From the IMG/VR virus record IMGVR_UViG_3300022916_000008, positions 1 through 64,000 of that record: 64,000 nt of DNA. The stretch is one strand, 5' to 3'. Origin of the DNA: a virus. Positions 11,534-62,524 of the stretch are shown here, one piece after another. The notes under the pieces are model-generated. The model was not told the origin of the DNA. It searched no databases and saw nothing but the letters and a program-made list of their open reading frames with translations. The position numbers and the translations under genes are program-made. Within the stretch, counting starts at the first letter, position 1. Each line of letters begins with the position of its first letter.

Positions 11534-12955
11534 TTAGCTTAGTTTTTCTCTTTTAAGTGTCCAAAACTGCGTATGTTCAGCTAGGTTAATATTACCAGTA
11601 GTTATCCACCCATCACTAATAATCGGACTTCCGTAACTTCCTGTATATCCCCACTTGATATTACTACCTGTTTTATCTGCTGTACTAATTACTGATATGA
11701 TGTTCCAACCTCTGGTTAAAGTGGTTGTTGCTGCTCCATTTATCCAGCAAGTAGTTCCCCAATGTGTTAGGGTAGTTCCATTGCTTGTTATATTGGTAGT
11801 TCCATTATCAAGTGTCATAATGTTTTGTGCTGTTCCATCATTCCAGAATACAAAACTTACATGATTGACTGTACCTTTATTTCCTATTGTGATTAAATCA
11901 CTATTAGCTGCTACGAACTTAGCTGCATATACACTACCTCGTCTTACAATATCAGGAAGATTGGTTGTGTTTAAGGTTGTATATAAATCCTCACTGAACC
12001 CTCTACGACTTGTGTAATTACTTAGTGTGGTTATGGAAGGGTGTAGGACTTCTTTGACACTTACATTATCAATACTACAATTAAGTGAAGAATCTGCTTG
12101 AATATATATCCTATCATCGGCAATAGCTGCATCTAATGTAATTGTTTCTGTGAATGTTCCTGCTGCACCCCTACTTATTCCTGCTCCACTAGAATCATTA
12201 CCTAGTATGAAACGAGTTCCTCCTCCTCCAGATAAATTAGATGAAGTATATATTACTTTATATGTCTTACTTGCTGTTATTCCAGCAGATTGATATATTT
12301 CTGTTTTACTTCCTGCTGCGTGACTTGCGACTCCACTTCCAATTGTCCATCCAGCTCCTTTAGTCCAACCTGTATCTGTATCAAATCCGCCATTAGTAAC
12401 CAACTCACTCCCCAACTGCTCACTAACATCTGTTAATGCCTGATGTGTAGCTTTGTTATAATCGTTGGTTGCCTCAGACGCACTAAGTAAATAATTAAAT
12501 TGCTCTGCTAAGTCAGCTTTAAAAGTACCATAAGCAGTACCATCATATCCAATCTGTAAATCATTAACTGTGAAATCAGCATTGTTTTCAACTATTAGCG
12601 TAACCTTTCCAGTAGCAGGTACAGTAGAAGTTGCTGCTCCATTGACATAATAAGTAGCTGAACTAAAGCCTGTATTGGAAACAGTACCTCCTGTAACTAC
12701 AATAGTTCTACCTGTTGCTAACTTACAACGGAAACTTGTTACATCCTCTAATTCAAACTTGATAGTTCGTGTAACCCATGTTCCTTTAAATGTAATCTTA
12801 GAACTACTAGCAGTAACAAACATAGCTTGTCCATTCTCAAATGATACATTGCTTACAGTACCTTTAAGGTTCTGCACAATATCCCATTCAGTATTGAATG
12901 TACATCTCCAGTTACTACCACTGTTGCCCCAATTATGTCTACCTTCTTTTGTCAT
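11534..12955 (-). CDS. Lectin/CBM-containing fibre protein
   Basis: GSELVTNGGFDTDTGWTKGAGWTI...IDNVSVKEV module flanked by LamG-like parts. Confidence 0.7.
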   Translation of the reverse strand: MTKEGRHNWGNSGSNWRCTFNTEWDIVQNLKGTVSNVSFENGQAMFVTASSSKITFKGTWVTRTIKFELEDVTSFRCKLATGRTIVVTGGTVSNTGFSSATYYVNGAATSTVPATGKVTLIVENNADFTVNDLQIGYDGTAYGTFKADLAEQFNYLLSASEATNDYNKATHQALTDVSEQLGSELVTNGGFDTDTGWTKGAGWTIGSGVASHAAGSKTEIYQSAGITASKTYKVIYTSSNLSGGGGTRFILGNDSSGAGISRGAAGTFTETITLDAAIADDRIYIQADSSLNCSIDNVSVKEVLHPSITTLSNYTSRRGFSEDLYTTLNTTNLPDIVRRGSVYAAKFVAANSDLITIGNKGTVNHVSFVFWNDGTAQNIMTLDNGTTNITSNGTTLTHWGTTCWINGAATTTLTRGWNIISVISTADKTGSNIKWGYTGSYGSPIISDGWITTGNINLAEHTQFWTLKREKLS

Positions 12956-20266: not shown

Positions 20267-21418
20267 TTAGTCTGTTTTTTCTGCTTCGATTATCATTGCT
20301 TGATAGTTCTGATGACTATTAATTGCTTTGATGTGTGCTATTGCTAAGTCACATATCTTGGCATGTGTGGAGTCGTTTAACTCGCATCCCTGATTAAGAG
20401 ATAGGCTTATTGCTTTTGGCTTTCTGATATAACTAATTACCACATCTTTGACTATTGCACCTTCATCTGTGTAGAAGTCAAGGAAATTCTGGTGCTCAGT
20501 ATATAGTACCTTCTCGCTGTTTGGTCCATGAAAAGCATTCGCTAATAACATCTCAACTTCACCATGTCTTCTCATTTCTGCTCTTGCATACTTGTAGCTT
20601 CCTGATGATGCTGTTTCTGTTAATGTTTTGTAGGTTACAGGTGTGTCTACAATTGGTTCATAGATGTCATTGTTAGTTATTCCTGTAAGATCAAACTTAA
20701 CATCTCCTGTCTGATTATCTTCTTGGACAATGATAACCTTGCCTGGATAATATAAACCCTTATAAGCCTCCCAATACATGCCTATACCTAGTCCTTGATC
20801 ATCGAACTCTGCATTAGCTGCAATTATAAATGCTTTAAGGAAAGAATCTCCGTCTTCAGGGAAGTTATAGCTTGCCCATGGAAGGTTTCCAGCTAAAGGA
20901 TCTATTTGACCTGAGTATGATCCTGTGAAATTAGATTCATATTCTATAAGGCTTATACTCGACCCCCCAAGCGTTGTTGGATTAGTGATAAAAGTAAATG
21001 TTCCTATTTGAACTGATGTTGAAGTAACTGTGTATTCTATATCACTACAATCATTATAGAACACCCTTGGACGACACCTAGTTAGTATAGCATAATCATC
21101 CGGTAGTGTTAACCTGAATTTGGTTGGTATGGATGAATCATTATTGTATACTCTCTCGATGTCGCCAGAGCTGCTCTGAGCGATGTACGCATTGTCTTTG
21201 TAGTAATCTACCACTAGCGAAGAAAGCTCCGCATAACGCTTGTTAGACTGCTCAAATCCTTGAGTGTTCTTTAAGGGTAGATAATGCTTGTCAAAATATG
21301 CACTCATTGCCCTATTGAGAAACAAATCAATCTCCTCCGACTCATATCCACGATACAAGTTTGAGTTCATGTTTTGAAGTCCTTCTAGGACATAGTTATG
21401 CATATCTAATACGAACAT
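20267..21418 (-). CDS. Head-tail ring protein
   Basis: EIDLFLNRA, GFEQSNKR, YIRKP and CEL..H..I motifs of crAss ring proteins. Confidence 0.75.
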   Translation of the reverse strand: MFVLDMHNYVLEGLQNMNSNLYRGYESEEIDLFLNRAMSAYFDKHYLPLKNTQGFEQSNKRYAELSSLVVDYYKDNAYIAQSSSGDIERVYNNDSSIPTKFRLTLPDDYAILTRCRPRVFYNDCSDIEYTVTSTSVQIGTFTFITNPTTLGGSSISLIEYESNFTGSYSGQIDPLAGNLPWASYNFPEDGDSFLKAFIIAANAEFDDQGLGIGMYWEAYKGLYYPGKVIIVQEDNQTGDVKFDLTGITNNDIYEPIVDTPVTYKTLTETASSGSYKYARAEMRRHGEVEMLLANAFHGPNSEKVLYTEHQNFLDFYTDEGAIVKDVVISYIRKPKAISLSLNQGCELNDSTHAKICDLAIAHIKAINSHQNYQAMIIEAEKTD

Positions 21419-22345
21419 CTATTTTGATATTGATAGTTCACGTTTTAACTCTTCATGTCTTGCCTTGATCTGCATATAGACCTTCTTGCTGTCAGGTGAA
21501 GCGTCTTTAAGGCTTGTAAGTACCTCGTCTATGCCCATGCCAAGTTCCCGATCATCAAACCAGTACTTACCACCTACATATGTCAGAGCCTTACTCTTAA
21601 CCATAAGTTCCACCATAGCTTTTAATTCTATATCCTTATCTAAGCATAGCAGTTCAAATACCTTCGCTGGCTTGCTTGTGTATTCAATCTTTGTTTTACC
21701 CTTTGTGATGACTGGCTTGACTGTAGCCTGGCCATTGATAATCTCACTTAGTCTGATCTTCTTTTCAGCTGGAGTCATATTGAAAGGTGACTCTCCAAAG
21801 TATGTCAGTACCCAATCTATCTTCTCCTTTTGTTCGTCCTTGAACAGGATTGCTAGTTGGTACATAGCACTTGCTGTATCATCTATAGTGGTTTCTTTGG
21901 CCTTCATCTGATCCCGAACACTCTCAATATAAAACAAACATCTCTTAGTGTCATTCTGAGCTGCCTCATATGACTCCTTAACAATACCTGTTTTGTAATT
22001 GATGTGTGATTCAGCAATCTTCCAATATAAATAATCCTGTGGTTCAATTGGATTTCCGCTTTTGTCAAGGCCAATATTCAATCTTAAACCATCATAGGGG
22101 ACATCAATACTTGTGTCAAGTAAATACTTGGCTACAGCTTCTCTAAAACCCATACCTTGCGATACATTGGTTAGTGACTGATAGACGTTCTCTCCTATAG
22201 GGTCTTCGATCTTAAGTGGCATAATGACTCGGCTATTCTTGCTGAATACGCTAAGTGCTCTCGTAGATCCTTCGAGTAACTCTTTAGGGAGCCTGCTGTT
22301 CCCTATGGTTCTTTTGATAATTACAATGTTCTCTTGTGCTTTCAT
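21419..22345 (-). CDS. Conserved crAss-like structural protein after the MCP
   Basis: PQDYLYW motif; synteny. Confidence 0.65.
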   Translation of the reverse strand: MKAQENIVIIKRTIGNSRLPKELLEGSTRALSVFSKNSRVIMPLKIEDPIGENVYQSLTNVSQGMGFREAVAKYLLDTSIDVPYDGLRLNIGLDKSGNPIEPQDYLYWKIAESHINYKTGIVKESYEAAQNDTKRCLFYIESVRDQMKAKETTIDDTASAMYQLAILFKDEQKEKIDWVLTYFGESPFNMTPAEKKIRLSEIINGQATVKPVITKGKTKIEYTSKPAKVFELLCLDKDIELKAMVELMVKSKALTYVGGKYWFDDRELGMGIDEVLTSLKDASPDSKKVYMQIKARHEELKRELSISK

Positions 22346-22368: not shown

Positions 22369-23856
22369 TTATGCTACTAAGCTTAATCTTAAGCAAGCAG
22401 ATGTATCAAAGATATTAATTCCTTGCTCAAATAAATACTCTAAACTTGCAGAGTCTTTGTCTGTAGCAACAAAATTAGTACTTCCATACTGTGAAGGTAA
22501 AGTTGCAATACCGGCTACTACTTTACGTACCATTTCACGACCCTTACGAGTTACCATCTTGACGTTAGGAATACCATTGTATGTACTCAAGTCAAGGAAG
22601 ATAAATTCACCACTGAATGAAGGCAAGCCCTCATACTTTGGATAGTTCCTGTGAATAAGGTCAAAGACAGGATTTCTATGAACTGTAATAGTATGTCCAT
22701 CTCTTGTCTTGTATGTATTGAAGTATGCTCCTAAAGATAACTTATCACCATTCTTAGTCACAAAAGTATTCTGTGTCTGCTCTGTAGTGAAGTATGACTT
22801 TAATTTGTCTTGCATTGCCTCGTTGAAAATACGCATACCCAATGTACCTGTATGTAATTGAATGTGCTTCTTCTCTGCACCACTAATACCATAGAACAAT
22901 CTTGTAGCAATCTGCTCAAAACGTTTGGCTGTTAGTTGTCCAGAATATGTTTCAACATTAGTGATCTGGTTAAGGATGCCGTCTCCACGCAAAATAGGTT
23001 TGCCACTTGGGCCACGCTGAGGAACTGTTCCATCAGGCATACGGTTGTACTCGCTTGTCCAATAGTCAATCTCTTTATACCTTCTCATTTTCATTAAGAA
23101 CTGCCACTCTGCCCAATCCATCCAATACTTAAAGGTAGTTACACCACCGCCACCTTGACGCATAGGCATATCAAACTTTACTTTATCGAATTGTGCTGAT
23201 GCTGAACCACCAATAGGTAGTGCTGCAATATGACCTGCAAATTTCATAGATGAACGTAGAGTCGTAAGTTGATTCTTTGCCCTTCCAGGATATTGCTGTT
23301 CTGTTTCAACTCCTACTGATTCTTCGTATTCAACAGGAGATGCTCCTCTTTCCCATTCAATGCCTGCTGCAAGATCTGTAGCTGGTACTGTGGCTAAAGA
23401 GTTATTACCCATGATCTGAAGTAAATAATCATAGTTTTGCCCATTGGCTTTTGGTTGTTCTGCAATCCTACACACAACTCCCGAAGGTGATGTAATAAGG
23501 TTTTGGAACTTAAAGCGTCTGTGCTTAAAGGTTACTTGGAATAATGAGAAGCCAAGGCCAGCATTTGTTGTTGTTGTTGCTGTTACTACTGAATCCATTG
23601 GGTCCATATCTCCCTTCATAATTGGGTACTGATACTCAAATGAGTCAACGTAATCTACGTTACCCACTCCTTCAGTAAGTTTTGATATGGCAAAGTCCTC
23701 TGGATAGTAATAAGTACCCATAGCCCAAATGAGTGCATTTGAAATCTCACTTGGTCGTGTCTGCATTGCATTCACAATAGATTCATAATCAAATAAACCT
23801 TTATCGTTTTGGTAAACCCCATGTACTTCTAACTGAGGTGATACTGCGTTTGTCAT
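22369..23856 (-). CDS. Major capsid protein
   Basis: 495 aa; NQLTTLR, GDGILNQI, LHTGTLGMRIFNEA, NPVFD and FIFLD motifs; follows the scaffold gene. Confidence 0.9.
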   Translation of the reverse strand: MTNAVSPQLEVHGVYQNDKGLFDYESIVNAMQTRPSEISNALIWAMGTYYYPEDFAISKLTEGVGNVDYVDSFEYQYPIMKGDMDPMDSVVTATTTTNAGLGFSLFQVTFKHRRFKFQNLITSPSGVVCRIAEQPKANGQNYDYLLQIMGNNSLATVPATDLAAGIEWERGASPVEYEESVGVETEQQYPGRAKNQLTTLRSSMKFAGHIAALPIGGSASAQFDKVKFDMPMRQGGGGVTTFKYWMDWAEWQFLMKMRRYKEIDYWTSEYNRMPDGTVPQRGPSGKPILRGDGILNQITNVETYSGQLTAKRFEQIATRLFYGISGAEKKHIQLHTGTLGMRIFNEAMQDKLKSYFTTEQTQNTFVTKNGDKLSLGAYFNTYKTRDGHTITVHRNPVFDLIHRNYPKYEGLPSFSGEFIFLDLSTYNGIPNVKMVTRKGREMVRKVVAGIATLPSQYGSTNFVATDKDSASLEYLFEQGINIFDTSACLRLSLVA

Positions 23857-51916: not shown

Positions 51917-52513
51917 ATGAGTAAACATAATTTATTTTTAACAAGTGTTTCTATACTAACTATCCTTGCAATTGTATTGCTTGTAAAGGAGGTTCATCAG
52001 GAAAGAACTATTAGAGAGCCTTATACGGACATGGAGCAGTTTGATGAAGCATTCGTCCAAGAACAAGAAGATAAGGCCGTGTATAGCGCTGAAAAAGCTT
52101 TATATGACTATACCATTGACTTCATTAAGAATCATGAAGGTTATGTTGCCGAACCATATCAATGTGCAGCTAATAAATGGACAATTGGTTACGGTCATAG
52201 AACGTATGGTCATGAATCATATAAGCATCTTACCGAAGTAGAGGCAGAGGCATTGCTAAGAACAGACTTTGATGTTCGCTTAGACATTGTAATGGAGAAA
52301 TATCCTGAACTTAGCTTTCATCAACAAATAGCATTAGCACACTTCGCATTTTGTTGTGGAGTAGGCGCTATGGAGAAGATGTATGCCGATACAAGTATTG
52401 ACGACATCGATAATTGGATTCATATATTGGGAAAGCCTAATAGCTTCTTGATAATGATCCGTAAGTTTGAAACAGACATTTATAATAACAACCCTTTTGG
52501 ACATGATAATTGA
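51917..52513 (+). CDS. GH24 lysozyme with an N-terminal membrane anchor
   Basis: HEG....Y.C....WTIGYGH and EAEALLRTD motifs; N-terminal TM helix. Confidence 0.85.
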   Translation: MSKHNLFLTSVSILTILAIVLLVKEVHQERTIREPYTDMEQFDEAFVQEQEDKAVYSAEKALYDYTIDFIKNHEGYVAEPYQCAANKWTIGYGHRTYGHESYKHLTEVEAEALLRTDFDVRLDIVMEKYPELSFHQQIALAHFAFCCGVGAMEKMYADTSIDDIDNWIHILGKPNSFLIMIRKFETDIYNNNPFGHDN

Positions 52514-53092: not shown

Positions 53093-53578
53093 ATGATTAC
53101 CTTATGCTTCTTTGATGGCTCATGTGGAGATAGTGGTGATGGAAAGTTTCATAACCCTGGCGGTGAAATGGGAATAGGAGCTGTTGTATTCTGGAATATC
53201 GATATTGCTGTTTTTAAATCAATTATTAATAGGGAATTGTTGTCTGAGACAATATTACATAGAGACTGTGATGAGATTAGTTACAGTGTTCCTCCACACA
53301 ATTCTAATAGTAATAATGTTTCCGAATACATGGCAGTCATAGAAGTAATGAAACTACTTAATAATAACAATGATAAAATTAGTCCAAAAGTATATATCCT
53401 TGGAGACAGTAGGCTTGTAATAGAGCAGCTTAATGGGTATTGGAAAATAAAGCAGGGAAGGTATAAAAAATATGCCTTGGAAGCTAAAGAAATGATAAAG
53501 CCAAGCTATAGATTTTTATGGATACCAAGAGAGTATAATGGCTATGCAGATATTTTATCAAAACAAAAAGATATATGA
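53093..53578 (+). CDS. rnhA: Ribonuclease HI
   Basis: FDGSC, NPG, SNNVSEY, GDSRLVIEQL and WIPREYNGYAD. Confidence 0.9.
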   Translation: MITLCFFDGSCGDSGDGKFHNPGGEMGIGAVVFWNIDIAVFKSIINRELLSETILHRDCDEISYSVPPHNSNSNNVSEYMAVIEVMKLLNNNNDKISPKVYILGDSRLVIEQLNGYWKIKQGRYKKYALEAKEMIKPSYRFLWIPREYNGYADILSKQKDI

Positions 53579-53895
53579 AAAAACTAGAACAGACAAGATT
53601 ACAAAGACTATGGATGCAATTTAAGTCATGGATAAAACCTACAAAGCTTGACCTTGTAAACGAATTACGAGGTATTGATATGTTCGAACTACCAGAGTGC
53701 GATTACAAAGAACTTCCCGGTAAAAAGTTTGAACCATTTAAAATGACGATGAATCGTAATGAGTTTGATAAAGATATCATTTACCAAGACTCTTCTTTTA
53801 CAAGAATTAAGATTATTGAACCACCCAAATATAAGCGTTTCTTGTTTTTTTGGAAGAGACGTTGGGAATATACAGTAGAACCTTATAAAGAATAA
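53575..53895 (+). CDS. Protein resembling an MCP beta-domain fragment
   Basis: PG..FEPFKMT....F...I......IKIIEPP....WEYTVE parallels the MCP segment AGLGFSLFQVTF...F...I.....RIAEQP....YDYLLQ. Confidence 0.5.
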   Translation: MKKLEQTRLQRLWMQFKSWIKPTKLDLVNELRGIDMFELPECDYKELPGKKFEPFKMTMNRNEFDKDIIYQDSSFTRIKIIEPPKYKRFLFFWKRRWEYTVEPYKE

Positions 53896-53899
53896 TACT

Positions 53900-54205
53900 A
53901 TGGCTTATTTTAGTAATGGAACCGATGGAATGGTATTAGACGATGAGTGTAGTACATGCTTAATAGGAAAAGACCCTGAACAGCTCTGCCCTATCTTATT
54001 CGTACAGATTGAAAATAACTATAATGCAGTTAATAATGAAGTTGCAACAAACATACTTAATCATTTAATTGATAACAATGGGAAGTGTGCAATGAAAGAA
54101 ATAATAACAGAAAAGAGCCTAATAACAAAAGGACTTAGTACATGCTGTGGATTTGTTAAAGAAGAGGCAGTGATATGCTCAAGGTGTAAAACAATAATTT
54201 TATGA
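53900..54205 (+). CDS. Cys-rich hypothetical protein
   Basis: MAYFSNGTDG start, CxxC, CP. Confidence 0.55.
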   Translation: MAYFSNGTDGMVLDDECSTCLIGKDPEQLCPILFVQIENNYNAVNNEVATNILNHLIDNNGKCAMKEIITEKSLITKGLSTCCGFVKEEAVICSRCKTIIL

Positions 54206-54289: not shown

Positions 54290-54499
54290 ATGACGATGAG
54301 TAAGAAAAGACTAAGACATTTTTTATTGATATGCATGAGAGATGTGTATGTCAACAAAGTAAATCCGGATGAGTGGATAGATGATATTATGAAAGAAATC
54401 TCTAATTCAAAAATGTTTAACGCTACAAGTTTTCTCAATGGACTATATGTTGGAATGATTGTGCTATATGTAATACAATTAATAGTAGGAAATAGGTAA
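54290..54499 (+). CDS. Small protein with a C-terminal TM helix
   Basis: 69 aa. Confidence 0.45.
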   Translation: MTMSKKRLRHFLLICMRDVYVNKVNPDEWIDDIMKEISNSKMFNATSFLNGLYVGMIVLYVIQLIVGNR

Positions 54500-54888
54500 T
54501 GACGAAGAAGTATAAATCATACAAAGGTCCGATGATGCACCGTGGAATAGATGACCTCAAGTCCTTACATCCATGGGTATCAACAATGCAAGGAGATCAT
54601 ATGTGGTCAGACAAGGTAGATGAAGATCATACCTACTTAATGGAATCATATTCATGGAGTGGTATAGACCTTACAAGTCAGAAAGCAATTGATGAAGAAA
54701 TAGCCAGGCGTAAGGCATGGAATGAAGAGTATGTCCGTGGGTTGTTAATTAACGGCAGCTATGGAGAAGATATTGGACAGAATGAGATTAAGATGATAGT
54801 TGATTCCTTTTGGGATAAATCAATAGGGAGCCAGCCAAAGTCATCATATAAGATGATATTTTTAGATCATGGTAAAACAAAAACATAA
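54499..54888 (+). CDS. Protein ending in an MCP C-terminal-like motif
   Basis: FWD...PKSSYKMIFLDHG versus MCP VFD...PSFSGEFIFLDLS. Confidence 0.5.
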   Translation: MTKKYKSYKGPMMHRGIDDLKSLHPWVSTMQGDHMWSDKVDEDHTYLMESYSWSGIDLTSQKAIDEEIARRKAWNEEYVRGLLINGSYGEDIGQNEIKMIVDSFWDKSIGSQPKSSYKMIFLDHGKTKT

Positions 54889-57653: not shown

Positions 57654-59183
57654 ATGGAAAATAAACATACATTTGAATGTACTGTATTAAATAAAATCCG
57701 TCATATTAACGATTGGAGGATTTATACATTTGTTACAGATGAAAGCGTACCTCATACAATACCTTTGAAAATAAAAGGGACTCATCATGGAAAAAACTTT
57801 GGCAGGCTCACATGCTTTAATGATATGACCAGAAACACTAAGTATGTTATTTCTATAAGCATACGTAATAGCAAGAATAAAGATCAGAATGGCATATGCT
57901 ATAAAAACTTATATCTTGAAACATATTATCCTATACTTGGTGAAGAAGCAGATCAGGATTTTTTAAAAGCCATTGTATCAGAAGCAAGATATGATTTGAT
58001 TATGTCTGTTTACCCAGACTTCATTGACTTGGTTCGTAATGGAAAAGAAATAGATCTAAACTTATTACCCGGTATTAAAGAAAAGACTTTTGCTATTATC
58101 AGAGACAAGGTTACAATCAATTACTGGAAGGCTGAGCTTATGTCATGGCTATTACCACTTGGTATTACCGAGAAGATGATCCAGAAGCTTATAGGTAGGT
58201 ATAAGACACCTGATGCACTCAAGGTAGCATTAAAAGGTAATCCATACATACTTACTGAGATTCATGGATTAGGTTTCTTTAGAGTAGATGATATGGTCAT
58301 GAAAATGTTTCCTGAAAAAAGAGTTAGTAGGGAGCGCATGATGGCATTTGTTACTTATCAGCTACAACATGTAGGGAATACGTCTGGACATACTGTAATC
58401 AGTAAAGCAGATATACTTGTATACATAAAGAAAAGTATACCGGAATGTGAGGCATTGTATAAGATAATGGCAAGTAGTCCAACGCAAGAATTATTGATAA
58501 TGTATAATGAGTTCGTAGGGCTTAAGCGTTACTATGATGCTGAGAAGTATATCTATGAAAAGCTCAAGAAGATAGCAGATGCGCCTATAGAGGTTATGCA
58601 TAATGAGAATGACTATATCTTTATGACAGAGGAGAAGATAGGCTTTAAGTTATCAGAAGAACAGAAGGAAGCTATAGAGTCATTACAAACCAATAACCTT
58701 GTGATAATCGTAGGAAGTGCTGGTGTTGGTAAAACAAGTTCTATTCAGGGAATTATACATGAATATGATGAGTGGGATATACTCTTGTGTTCATTAAGCG
58801 CTAAGGCTGCTGATAGGATGAGAGAGATAACAGGTAAGGAAGCATTTACTATTCATAGAGCATTAGGATATGACGGAAAAGGTTTTGCTTACAATGAAAG
58901 AAGTCCATTACACAACAAGGTTATTATTATTGATGAAGCCAGTATGGCTAATCTATACATCTTTAAATCATTGATAGAGGCTATAAGTATAGGGTCTAAA
59001 TTAGTAATAGTTGGAGATGATGGACAGTTACCGCCAATAGGGGCAGGTAATGTCTTTCAGGATTTATTGCAGAGTGAATTTAAGATATGTAGGCTTACAA
59101 AGATATACAGGCAGGCACAGAGGAGTGGTATCATAGTAGATGCTAATTATATTAGAAAAGGAATTAACCCATTTAAACAATAG
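57654..59183 (+). CDS. RecD2-like helicase, N-terminal part (HhH plus domain 1A)
   Basis: NPYILTEIHGLGF, GSAGVGKT, TIHRALG, DEASM, GDDGQLPPIGAG and LTKIYRQ; stops before motifs V/VI. Confidence 0.85.
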   Translation: MENKHTFECTVLNKIRHINDWRIYTFVTDESVPHTIPLKIKGTHHGKNFGRLTCFNDMTRNTKYVISISIRNSKNKDQNGICYKNLYLETYYPILGEEADQDFLKAIVSEARYDLIMSVYPDFIDLVRNGKEIDLNLLPGIKEKTFAIIRDKVTINYWKAELMSWLLPLGITEKMIQKLIGRYKTPDALKVALKGNPYILTEIHGLGFFRVDDMVMKMFPEKRVSRERMMAFVTYQLQHVGNTSGHTVISKADILVYIKKSIPECEALYKIMASSPTQELLIMYNEFVGLKRYYDAEKYIYEKLKKIADAPIEVMHNENDYIFMTEEKIGFKLSEEQKEAIESLQTNNLVIIVGSAGVGKTSSIQGIIHEYDEWDILLCSLSAKAADRMREITGKEAFTIHRALGYDGKGFAYNERSPLHNKVIIIDEASMANLYIFKSLIEAISIGSKLVIVGDDGQLPPIGAGNVFQDLLQSEFKICRLTKIYRQAQRSGIIVDANYIRKGINPFKQ

Positions 59184-59187
59184 TATT

Positions 59188-59448
59188 ATGGATTGGGAGA
59201 AAGAGTATAAAAAGTGTATAGGGAATCCTTATTATTTCTATACAACATATGTCCTTGTTAATGGAAAGCAAGCAACAACAATGTTGTCAAAAGAAGAGTT
59301 TAATAAATATTTTGAAGCAAAGAGATATTCTGAATGGTGGAGAAAGACAACTCCTAAACACATACAGGAAAAGATGCAAAAAGAATTTGACAAGATAGAG
59401 GAGGAACTTTGGACTAAAGAGTATAAGAAAGATGGCAATAATAACTAG
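59188..59448 (+). CDS. Inserted mini-ORF with a terminase N-terminus-like motif
   Basis: EYKKCIGNPYYFYTTYV; lies between the two RecD2 halves. Confidence 0.6.
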   Translation: MDWEKEYKKCIGNPYYFYTTYVLVNGKQATTMLSKEEFNKYFEAKRYSEWWRKTTPKHIQEKMQKEFDKIEEELWTKEYKKDGNNN

Positions 59449-60094
59449 AGGAGAGCTAAAGGATATTCACTATTCCTTTATAGAGGAGAGGGATAAGATA
59501 TTCGATCAGGCAGTACGTGCTTATATGAAAGCTGCAGGAAAGTATGGAACAGATGAGGTTATTCTTATCACTCCTAAGCGTATACATGAGGGTCTAACTA
59601 CTAATAGCTTTAACAGGGCTATTCAGGACTTGCTTATTGAGAAAGATGTTAAGTCAATGAAAAGAGGAGCTCATGAGTTTAGGTTAGGCGCTAAAGTAAT
59701 ACAGAAGGAGAATGATTACAAAGGCAAGGGAGTTATCAATGGGCAGATAGGATATATATGGTCTATAAGTGATGAAGGGTTTAGCGTGGACTTCAAGGGA
59801 GAGGTTGTAGAATACCAAAAGGATGAGATCAGGCAGATAGAACTTGCCTATGCATTAACAGGACATTCCTATCAGGGTAGCCAGGCGAAGATCGTTATCA
59901 TTGCCTTTGATATGAGTGTATACATATTATTGTCCAGACAGTGGCTGTATACGGCTATCACAAGGGCACAAGAACAATGCTATATCATATGTCCAAAGAA
60001 AGCTCATGATGTAACAATTGGAAAGAACTTCACACACCGAAGAACATTTATGCAGAGAATATTAGCAACAGCAAAACTATTAATGACATTATAA
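59432..60094 (+). CDS. RecD2-like helicase, C-terminal part (domains 2A/2B)
   Basis: FRLGAKVIQKEN, INGQIG, LAYALTGHSYQGS and LYTAITRA. Confidence 0.85.
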   Translation: MAIITRGELKDIHYSFIEERDKIFDQAVRAYMKAAGKYGTDEVILITPKRIHEGLTTNSFNRAIQDLLIEKDVKSMKRGAHEFRLGAKVIQKENDYKGKGVINGQIGYIWSISDEGFSVDFKGEVVEYQKDEIRQIELAYALTGHSYQGSQAKIVIIAFDMSVYILLSRQWLYTAITRAQEQCYIICPKKAHDVTIGKNFTHRRTFMQRILATAKLLMTL

Positions 60095-61155: not shown

Positions 61156-61701
61156 ATGAAAACAAAGACCTGTAGTATTTGCGATAGACCTGTTTGGAAG
61201 AATGGGAAGTGTAGGTATCATGACGATACACAGAAGCCTCTGGTGAGCTCTTCTAACTTCAAGAGTACAAATGTACCACTTAGGAGGAGATCGTCCATCA
61301 GCGTTCCTTATACAGCCTTAAAACGCAAGTCTCCTAATAAGGTTGAGAACACTGAATGGGGATATGACAATCAGTTTGGAATGTTCTTATCTTTATGGGA
61401 GAATGCTAAGAAAGCAGGAAAGGTATATTCACAGATATCAGGAATAGATATTACATGGACATATGGAACAGACTTATGGGTAAATTGCTTTGCCCACATA
61501 CTTGCAAAAGGGATCTATCCTCGGTGGAAGTTGAATCCTGCTAACATAATGATAGTAGAACCACATGAACATTCACTTTTAGATCAAGGGACGGTTAAAC
61601 AAAGACAAGACTATGAAAAGAAATATAATTGCAGCTTTGATATCTTTTATGAAAAGAAAGACAGGCTTAAGATCGAGTACATGGCCACAACGAGCCGTTG
61701 A
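61156..61701 (+). CDS. HNH/NinG-like nuclease-fold protein
   Basis: N-terminal CxxC..C..H; FAHILAKG.YP...NPANI...EH. Confidence 0.55.
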   Translation: MKTKTCSICDRPVWKNGKCRYHDDTQKPLVSSSNFKSTNVPLRRRSSISVPYTALKRKSPNKVENTEWGYDNQFGMFLSLWENAKKAGKVYSQISGIDITWTYGTDLWVNCFAHILAKGIYPRWKLNPANIMIVEPHEHSLLDQGTVKQRQDYEKKYNCSFDIFYEKKDRLKIEYMATTSR

Positions 61702-62524
61702 GTATTATAATAATAATATAAAGGATGATCCATGGAAAGCATCTACTAGCTGGTCCGATACAGGCAAGAGATATACTTGTGGTGCTGATCCTTATAGGAA
61801 TGTCGATGATGTTACTTATCATTGGCCTCTAGGTAAGGGTATATTAGAACAGGTAAGGGATAGCAACTATGTAGAGTATTCCAAAATGCCACCAGTGACA
61901 GGGGAGTCCATTAAGGAAGCGTGTAGGAGAGCATTGGAGCAATATATAAATCCTGTTATTGAAACGGATAGAGCAGGTGCTAAAATGTTTCATGAAGCAA
62001 TGAAACGAGCTGCTGCTGCTGATTATCCTACACCTATTGAACATGACAAGAACAAAGCCTATGACTACTACTATGATCAATATAAAGAAGCACTAGAAAA
62101 GCGAGTAGCTAAGGATAGAGCAGAAGTCAATGAAAAAGGTACTGTATTTTCTAAGGAACAGATAGAGAAGTTAGAGAAAGAACATCCGGGATTCATTCAA
62201 TCTGCAATACAGTCTGGAGATATTAAACCTTCAGATATGCATCCTTCATTAAAAGAACACAACCAACTATACTTTACCAAAGATGTTAGTGAAGATACTG
62301 ATAGGCACAAACCTTTTCATATATATACAAACAAGCCAATTGCTAAATACAACAGCAAAGGTATTGAACACAAGATAGTAACTTCATGTGGTGATGAGTT
62401 TAGGATGATAAATGACAATAGTTATTCTGATGGATATACATGGGTAATGTATTGTGCTAATACCAATATAGGTTATGCAGCAGCAGTCTCAAAGGGTGAT
62501 GAATTTGTATTAAAAGAAGTTTAG
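61613..62524 (+). CDS. Mosaic protein of MCP- and TerL-like motifs
   Basis: YTCGADPY, VDDVTYHWPL, GKGILEQV and TDRAGAKMFHEAM; the start is preceded by an AAGAC leader. Confidence 0.6.
   Translation: MKRNIIAALISFMKRKTGLRSSTWPQRAVEYYNNNIKDDPWKASTSWSDTGKRYTCGADPYRNVDDVTYHWPLGKGILEQVRDSNYVEYSKMPPVTGESIKEACRRALEQYINPVIETDRAGAKMFHEAMKRAAAADYPTPIEHDKNKAYDYYYDQYKEALEKRVAKDRAEVNEKGTVFSKEQIEKLEKEHPGFIQSAIQSGDIKPSDMHPSLKEHNQLYFTKDVSEDTDRHKPFHIYTNKPIAKYNSKGIEHKIVTSCGDEFRMINDNSYSDGYTWVMYCANTNIGYAAAVSKGDEFVLKEV

Follow-up and report, generated by a model that had tools for sequence, protein, structure and literature searches.

A small gene in the replication block of a marine crAss-like phage and its probable kinship with the major capsid protein's insertion domain

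The first 64,000 bases of a 90,856-bp virus record from IMG/VR (IMGVR_UViG_3300022916_000008, estimated completeness 93%), which we refer to as the window, belong to a marine crAss-like phage and carry a small open reading frame (ORF) of 106 codons in a block of replication genes. Comparisons of sequence profiles indicate that the C-terminal ~60 residues of its product, P0001, are very probably homologous to the insertion domain (I-domain) of crAss-type major capsid proteins (MCPs). In gp32, the MCP of PhicrAss001, residues 79-180 form this I-domain, a beta-barrel inserted in the E-loop, which is exposed on the capsid, takes part in a three-fold assembly with an auxiliary capsid protein and resembles the P22 I-domain in structure (PMC10172136). 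The small ORF would be a case, supported by sequence, in which an MCP insertion domain persists as a small gene of its own, away from the structural module. To our knowledge, insertion domains of HK97-fold coat proteins have been known only as parts of coat proteins, and our literature search, which was of limited coverage, turned up no account of an MCP insertion-domain homolog that stands alone. We regard the homology as solid, whereas the biological role of the small protein is one that we infer.

Similarity to the major capsid protein by single pairs and by profiles

The original prediction had recognized a stand-alone copy of an MCP beta-domain in the small ORF, based on an alignment made by eye with a segment of the MCP from the same phage (the resident MCP, P0002), which corresponds to residues 98-147 of that protein. 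The best Smith-Waterman alignment of the two proteins reproduced the same ungapped register, with a raw score of 34 and 8 identical residues in 37 positions. The Smith-Waterman score against the whole MCP was equalled by 24% of the shuffled small-ORF sequences, and BLASTP aligned the two proteins in a different register at E=13. The similarity of the small ORF to one MCP is not beyond chance, and the original prediction evidently singled out the first entry of a ranking in which some entry must come first.

The I-domain signal became significant when a homolog was added to the small ORF. With phmmer, an exhaustive search through 1.84 billion cluster representatives of any length returned a sole true homolog, P0004, with 112 residues and 37% identity (E=4e-11), besides a fragment of the small ORF itself; the same search found no longer form of the small ORF. 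A profile search found no family member beyond P0004 either, so that about 15 billion proteins contain this single true homolog. Although P0004 was not chosen for any resemblance to MCPs, it turned out to be the better MCP match, scoring 34.2 on its own in hhalign against a profile of 21 MCPs (A2), above the 25.4 of the small ORF. The two-sequence profile of the small ORF and P0004 (A1) reached 35.9-37.2 against the 21 MCPs (P=6e-5 to 9e-5), with residues 43-104 of the ORF aligned to residues 94-162 of the MCP. The register proposed by eye was thereby recovered at the profile level.

Three kinds of null never approached these scores. Column shuffles of A1 (n=250) gave 13.7 ± 2.6 with a maximum of 23.1, and real ~106-residue pieces of the other proteins of this phage (n=176) gave 14.1 ± 3.1 with a maximum of 29.4. 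The third null consisted of 218 simulated homologs at 37% identity, in which 37% of the residues were kept as shared with the ORF and the remainder were mutated by BLOSUM-conditional draws. These scored 15.0 ± 2.7, and 19% of them hit the same MCP region. Because their maximum was 27.9 as compared with 34.2 for P0004, a winner's-curse explanation is excluded. As this case shows, a single additional homolog together with suitable nulls can decide for or against a similarity that was seen by eye in one pair, even at chance level.

Searches with HMMER led to the same region. Among 38,880 PHROG families, P0004 had a single match, the crAss MCP family phrog_11589 at profile positions 103-151, with a library-wide E=0.27, which corresponds to about 7e-6 for phrog_11589 as one pre-specified family. 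A hidden Markov model (HMM) of the MCP, run with filters off on 354 sequences, placed P0004 first (P=9e-7) and the small ORF second (P=1e-4), with the best decoy at 1e-3. With an HMM of the I-domain only, built from 56 de-duplicated I-domains of diverse crAss MCPs and 87 positions long, P0004 scored 23.7 bits (P=1.8e-9) and the small ORF 12.6 bits (P=5.3e-6), with the best of 354 decoys at 1.6e-3. HHpred against the crAss001 MCP had been proposed as a check together with the original prediction; in hhalign, A1 aligned with the profile of the 56 I-domains at Prob 90.4% and P=1.4e-6. HMMER and HH-suite converged on one register.

Searches in the reverse direction and in six frames were consistent with these results. 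In ten other crAss-like records, the A1 profile had a single six-frame match (E=9.6e-4), located inside an MCP I-domain. Against 101 MCPs, the best domain of A1 fell within the I-domain in 83 of 89 cases, 23 of them at P<=1e-4. A filter-free six-frame scan of four crAss-like genomes (4439 frames) with the I-domain HMM listed the four MCPs, followed by the small ORF at E=0.03 and the next frame at E=1.9, so that the small ORF was the only non-MCP frame at E<1. A six-frame I-domain profile search over 19 records returned MCPs only, with the match to the resident MCP at 23329-23631; since that search also missed the small ORF itself, its negative outcome carries no information.

Other searches returned little. 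The small ORF had no match in Pfam or PHROGs even at E<=10, Crass_capsid included, and none by tblastn and blastn in 50,697 phage records. Pattern scans of IMG/VR found no relatives, whether run with the small ORF and the A1 profile or with the RNase H gene and the phrog_8581 gene downstream, and the A1 profile had no match in a PDB sequence search. A JGI metagenome contig carries an identical copy of the small ORF, the only match in the JGI metagenome scan, and a variant differing by one residue exists (P0028).

Truncated core and family-specific additions

The resident MCP belongs to the HK97-fold proteins of crAss type (Table 1). It is ~31% identical to known Crassvirales MCPs, its nearest relatives in IMG/VR reach <=37%, and a few metagenome proteins reach 57-72% identity (P0006-P0010); the phage lineage is poorly sampled. 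In an AlphaFold2 model of the resident MCP, a beta-rich block covers residues 88-171 with a predicted local distance difference test (pLDDT) of 80-92, upstream of the spine helix at residues 248-267. The I-domain-like part of the small ORF family is to be compared with this domain as known from gp32 79-180 (PDB 7QOF, 7QOH, 7QOI and 8CKB; within PF23898 and phrog_11589). The small ORF shares significant profile similarity with it over the five central strands and matches at conserved hydrophobic or core positions, namely F106, V108, F110, F115, I131, P135 and Y144 of the MCP, which include a conserved proline and a conserved tyrosine. The I-x-E-x-P-K motif emphasized in the original prediction held in part, since its I and P are conserved across MCPs, whereas its E and K belong to the resident MCP alone.

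The small ORF does not encode a complete I-domain with all strands. Its match to the I-domain HMM covers positions 14-61 of 87, and that of P0004 positions 18-77, or about 55-70% of the domain. The five central strands are kept, and the first and the last (MCP strands 88-93 and 167-171) have no counterpart. With 106 residues and neither an A- nor a P-domain, the likeness does not sit within the E-loop of an HK97 fold; it is a likeness by sequence profile, found in a free-standing protein encoded in a replication block. Residues 1-44 are not MCP-like, and residues 88-93 form a 6-residue insertion relative to the last MCP hairpin, seen in hhalign as a gap of 6 in the MCP row. The proposal of a stand-alone MCP beta-domain accordingly applies to the C-terminal ~60 residues and not to the whole protein, in which the 44 N-terminal residues and the insertion lie outside the likeness.

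P0004 is built like the small ORF, and both a helix at the N-terminus and a motif at the C-terminus are conserved between them. The two additions, a basic amphipathic N-terminal helix and a W/R-rich motif that contains the 6-residue insertion, occur only in the small ORF family in comparison with the crassvirus MCP I-domain, and they are the best conserved parts (Table 1). The I-domain-like core is the least conserved, with 10 of 52 residues identical between the two proteins, and is only 22% identical to the resident I-domain. Both proteins are basic, P0004 with a pI of 10.2, and contain 4-5 Trp. AlphaFold2 run on the two-sequence alignment (pLDDT 47.7) placed a helix at residues 3-19, with low confidence.

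A free-standing I-domain has a physical precedent in the coat proteins of P22 and CUS-3, whose I-domains are likewise small beta-barrel accessory domains of an HK97-fold MCP, six-stranded in their case. The isolated P22 and CUS-3 I-domains are stable and fold autonomously (PMC11243222), which makes a stand-alone form physically plausible. The P22 I-domain is set in the A-domain. A free-standing gene copy of a P22-like I-domain was not found in the literature searched.

Table 1. Coordinates of the small ORF, the resident MCP and neighbouring genes in the window
Feature	Coordinates	Strand	Remarks
Gene for the putative stand-alone I-domain-like protein (P0001)	53575..53895	+	106 residues, pI 9.4
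Basic amphipathic N-terminal helix TRLQRLWxQFKxWIxP, residues 7-22, family-specific	53593..53640	+	13/16 identical between P0001 and P0004; outside every MCP alignment
I-domain-like beta core, residues 45-102, aligned to resident MCP 96-147	53707..53880	+	hhalign, HMMER, six-frame scan
W/R-rich motif FLxFWKRRWxY, residues 88-99	53836..53871	+	9/11 identical between P0001 and P0004
Resident MCP (P0002), HK97 fold, crAss type	22369..23856	-	495 residues; PF23898 4e-64; phrog_11589 9e-78; crAss001 gp32 7qof 5.8e-15
I-domain of the resident MCP, residues ~74-175	23332..23637	-	mapped from gp32 residues 79-180 by alignment
MCP part aligned to the small ORF, residues 94-147	23416..23577	-	
RNase H gene, 5' of the small ORF	53093..53578	+	PF13456 1e-09; phrog_531 and phrog_22885 annotated RNase H
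RecD-like helicase part	57654..59183	+	phrog_4412 positions 53-507 of 743
ORF of 102 residues bridging the RecD-like helicase gap	59140..59448	+	
RecD-like helicase part	59432..60094	+	phrog_4412 positions 518-741

Gene setting, possible role and origin

The small ORF, a genuine and closely packed gene, lies on the plus strand in a replication block, ~30 kb from the MCP gene on the minus strand. Its ATG shares the sequence ATGA with the TGA stop of the RNase H gene, an overlap of 4 nt, and the following ORF begins 4 nt past its own stop. RNase H and the small ORF are probably co-translated. A terminator scan found none at the junction between the two genes, and promoters and terminators around the small ORF occurred at shuffle-level counts, with a sigma-70 consensus that is ill-suited to a Bacteroidota-type host. 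The wider replication and recombination block on the same strand encodes an endolysin, a DUF551 protein, an MmcB-like nuclease, a RusA-like resolvase, a split RecD-like helicase and a RecA/UvsX-like recombinase.

The position of the gene in the replication block, overlapping that of RNase H, suggests a non-virion role, and we consider it probable that the I-domain segment has been exapted to such a role. The small protein would be an early or middle product that is made together with RNase H and is not part of the virion. Since conservation is concentrated in the basic and aromatic additions, the beta core may now serve as a scaffold, with the function residing in the two conserved additions as the working surface. 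We give this combination of an old core and a new binding surface slightly less than an even chance. The additions would most likely bind nucleic acid or an acidic partner during replication, comparable to the use of aromatic and basic residues by other small beta-barrels; nucleic acid in particular is a tentative and rather doubtful choice of ligand. The small ORF would be a concrete example of how phages possibly recycle structural domains into early accessory proteins, a route that has until now been proposed for some anti-defence proteins from fold resemblance alone. For crassvirus biology, it provides a defined target of 106 residues in asking whether such a protein binds capsid proteins, host sensors or nucleic acid.

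Several observations weigh against a homologous core that carries a functional surface. The small ORF alone, with its hhalign score of 25.4 against A2, reached P=0.004 and ranked third among 97 ORFs of the window, and the family has only two members, which makes the conservation statistics thin. The low-confidence AlphaFold2 model turns the W/R-rich motif into a helix and not a hairpin, and a Foldseek search with this model gave no match in the PDB at E<=0.001. The ESM Atlas model had a pLDDT of 0.46 and no usable feature match, and its structure neighbours all had a template modelling score (TM) <0.5. Having lost two strands, the domain might fail to form a barrel, and the high conservation of the additions could reflect a structural task, namely to cover the barrel where it is open, and not a function.

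The main rival to a scaffold with new binding surfaces is mimicry of the capsid domain, in which the small protein would act through native I-domain interfaces and compete for, or shield, a partner of the I-domain. Candidate partners are the auxiliary capsid protein, adjacent MCPs and an immune sensor of the host for newly made MCP, and the protein might work as a decoy, as an assembly timer or as a dominant-negative against co-infecting relatives. We consider mimicry unlikely. The homology is to an exposed domain that in crAss001 engages in the three-fold assembly with the auxiliary protein, and the gene lies outside the late structural block, so that its product could be present before the capsid proteins. 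The idea of small anti-defence proteins with an origin in capsid accessory folds also has a precedent, as the beta-tulip shared by AcrIIC1 and a decoration protein led to the proposal that a small non-structural phage protein arose from a capsid accessory fold (Stone et al., bioRxiv 10.1101/216911). The link of AcrIIC1 is by structure alone, without sequence similarity, whereas sequence profiles link the small ORF to a domain of the MCP proper; AcrIIC1 is an anti-defence protein, and no such activity is known for the small ORF. Surface mimicry is made doubtful by the core, which is the least conserved part of the family, differs widely from the resident I-domain and lacks two strands. Moreover, the auxiliary partner protein was not identified in this genome by Pfam, PHROGs or PDB sequence search, and no decoy made of an MCP insertion domain is described in the literature searched. 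Less likely again is the more specific version, a soluble look-alike of the capsid I-domain made ahead of the capsid proteins and acting by mimicry. Such a look-alike might serve as a decoy and weaken an immune sensor of the host that responds to coat protein, or as a dominant-negative that spoils the capsid assembly of a competing crAss-like phage, in the latter case comparable to the capsid-derived restriction factors of animal genomes.

It is quite improbable that there is no common descent and that P0001 is an ORFan whose strand pattern resembles the I-domain by chance or convergence. Such an explanation fits the chance-level pairwise similarity, the third rank of the ORF alone, the absence of a Pfam match, the library-wide PHROG E-value, and the low pLDDT of the fold model. 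It leaves unexplained why none of the three nulls approached the observed profile scores, why HMMER and HH-suite arrived at the same register, why the unselected P0004 scored above the small ORF, and why reverse searches landed in the MCP I-domains of unrelated records.

Homology being the preferred reading, the small protein may have originated from a segment of an MCP I-domain that was partly duplicated or captured in this phage lineage and then diverged fast. The direction from MCP to ORF is favoured by the contrast between a family of just two proteins and an I-domain that all crassviruses share. The original prediction had supposed a donor MCP other than the resident one and had suggested a phylogeny of the fragment with full MCPs. 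The resident MCP was among the weaker matches, with 4.9 bits as opposed to 12.2 for the best MCP clade. In an I-domain tree built on 88 columns, P0001 and P0004 formed a clade of their own, with a Shimodaira-Hasegawa-like approximate likelihood ratio test (SH-aLRT) value of 98. This clade fell outside all 56 MCP I-domains, and the small proteins had no supported place inside any MCP clade, so that a donor clade did not emerge; judged from these sequences, no donor MCP can be named.

The same placement could be taken to mean the reverse direction, in which the small protein is a relic of a free-living beta-barrel gene that was later inserted into the E-loop of the crassvirus MCP. The clade has a very long branch (2.6, plus 2.3 and 0.9) and a deviant composition, and its position is, on the sequence data, what long-branch attraction would give. 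A relic of that kind is very improbable in view of two members from one narrow lineage among ~15 billion proteins, the lack of family members in three complete crAss-like genomes by six-frame scan with the I-domain HMM, and the missing terminal strands. Finally, a minor virion or decoration protein, a free I-domain-like subunit on the capsid surface, would agree with homology to a surface capsid domain and is most improbable, as the gene, unlike those of decoration or cement proteins, is not grouped with the late structural genes. It sits at a distance of ~30 kb from their block and on the opposite strand, amid replication genes and coupled to RNase H.

Other ORFs compared with the capsid protein, and neighbouring genes

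The original prediction had assigned the small ORF to a family of structural fragments as its second member. Membership of such a family was not supported: A1 compared with the protein of the ORF at 61613..62524 (plus strand, 303 residues) gave P=0.3, the other ORFs of the supposed collage matched the MCP at decoy level, and, there being no family by sequence, each ORF stands or falls alone. The small protein and the 61613 protein, which is encoded in the same replication block, do not form one family by sequence. The 61613 protein had phrog_11589 as its only PHROG match, with residues 12-93 aligned to profile positions 223-302 at a library-wide E of 0.03. Its match to the MCP family was 4.3e-4 in a six-frame scan of its own genome, it scored 37.8 in hhalign against the MCP profile, and pieces of it gave P~2e-3 with the MCP HMM in HMMER. 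Its C-terminal third had no I-domain sequence signal (P>=0.012). The ORF at 54499..54888 (plus strand) matched the MCP over 14 columns, residues 112-125 with MCP residues 411-424, at a HMMER P=1e-3, which equals the decoy level, and its resemblance to the MCP is probably due to chance.

Two regions of the minus strand deserve mention. The N-terminal ~115 residues of a 473-residue protein of the structural block (11534..12955) ranked as the top decoy with the I-domain HMM (P 5.7e-4, with three weak sub-matches) and aligned over 85 columns to MCP residues 73-160, with a hhalign score of 20.1. The likeness is not significant, but this part might be a further small beta-barrel. The pair of genes downstream of the MCP (20267..22345, namely 21419..22345 with 308 residues and 20267..21418 with 383 residues) occupy the site expected for the auxiliary capsid protein and matched no structural family of Pfam or PHROG and no crAss001 chain by sequence. 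By this measure, divergence is very strong among the accessory proteins of the capsid in this lineage.

On the plus strand, the ORF directly 3' of the small ORF (53900..54205) encodes a Cys-rich protein of 101 residues with several CxxC-like pairs and has no Pfam or PHROG family; its product may bind zinc and be a partner encoded in one operon with the small ORF. The RecD-like helicase (57654..60094) is distributed over two ORFs, with a further ORF bridging the gap (Table 1). A phage-lysozyme endolysin with a hydrophobic N-terminal segment (51917..52513) is encoded within the replication and accessory block and not beside the structural genes.
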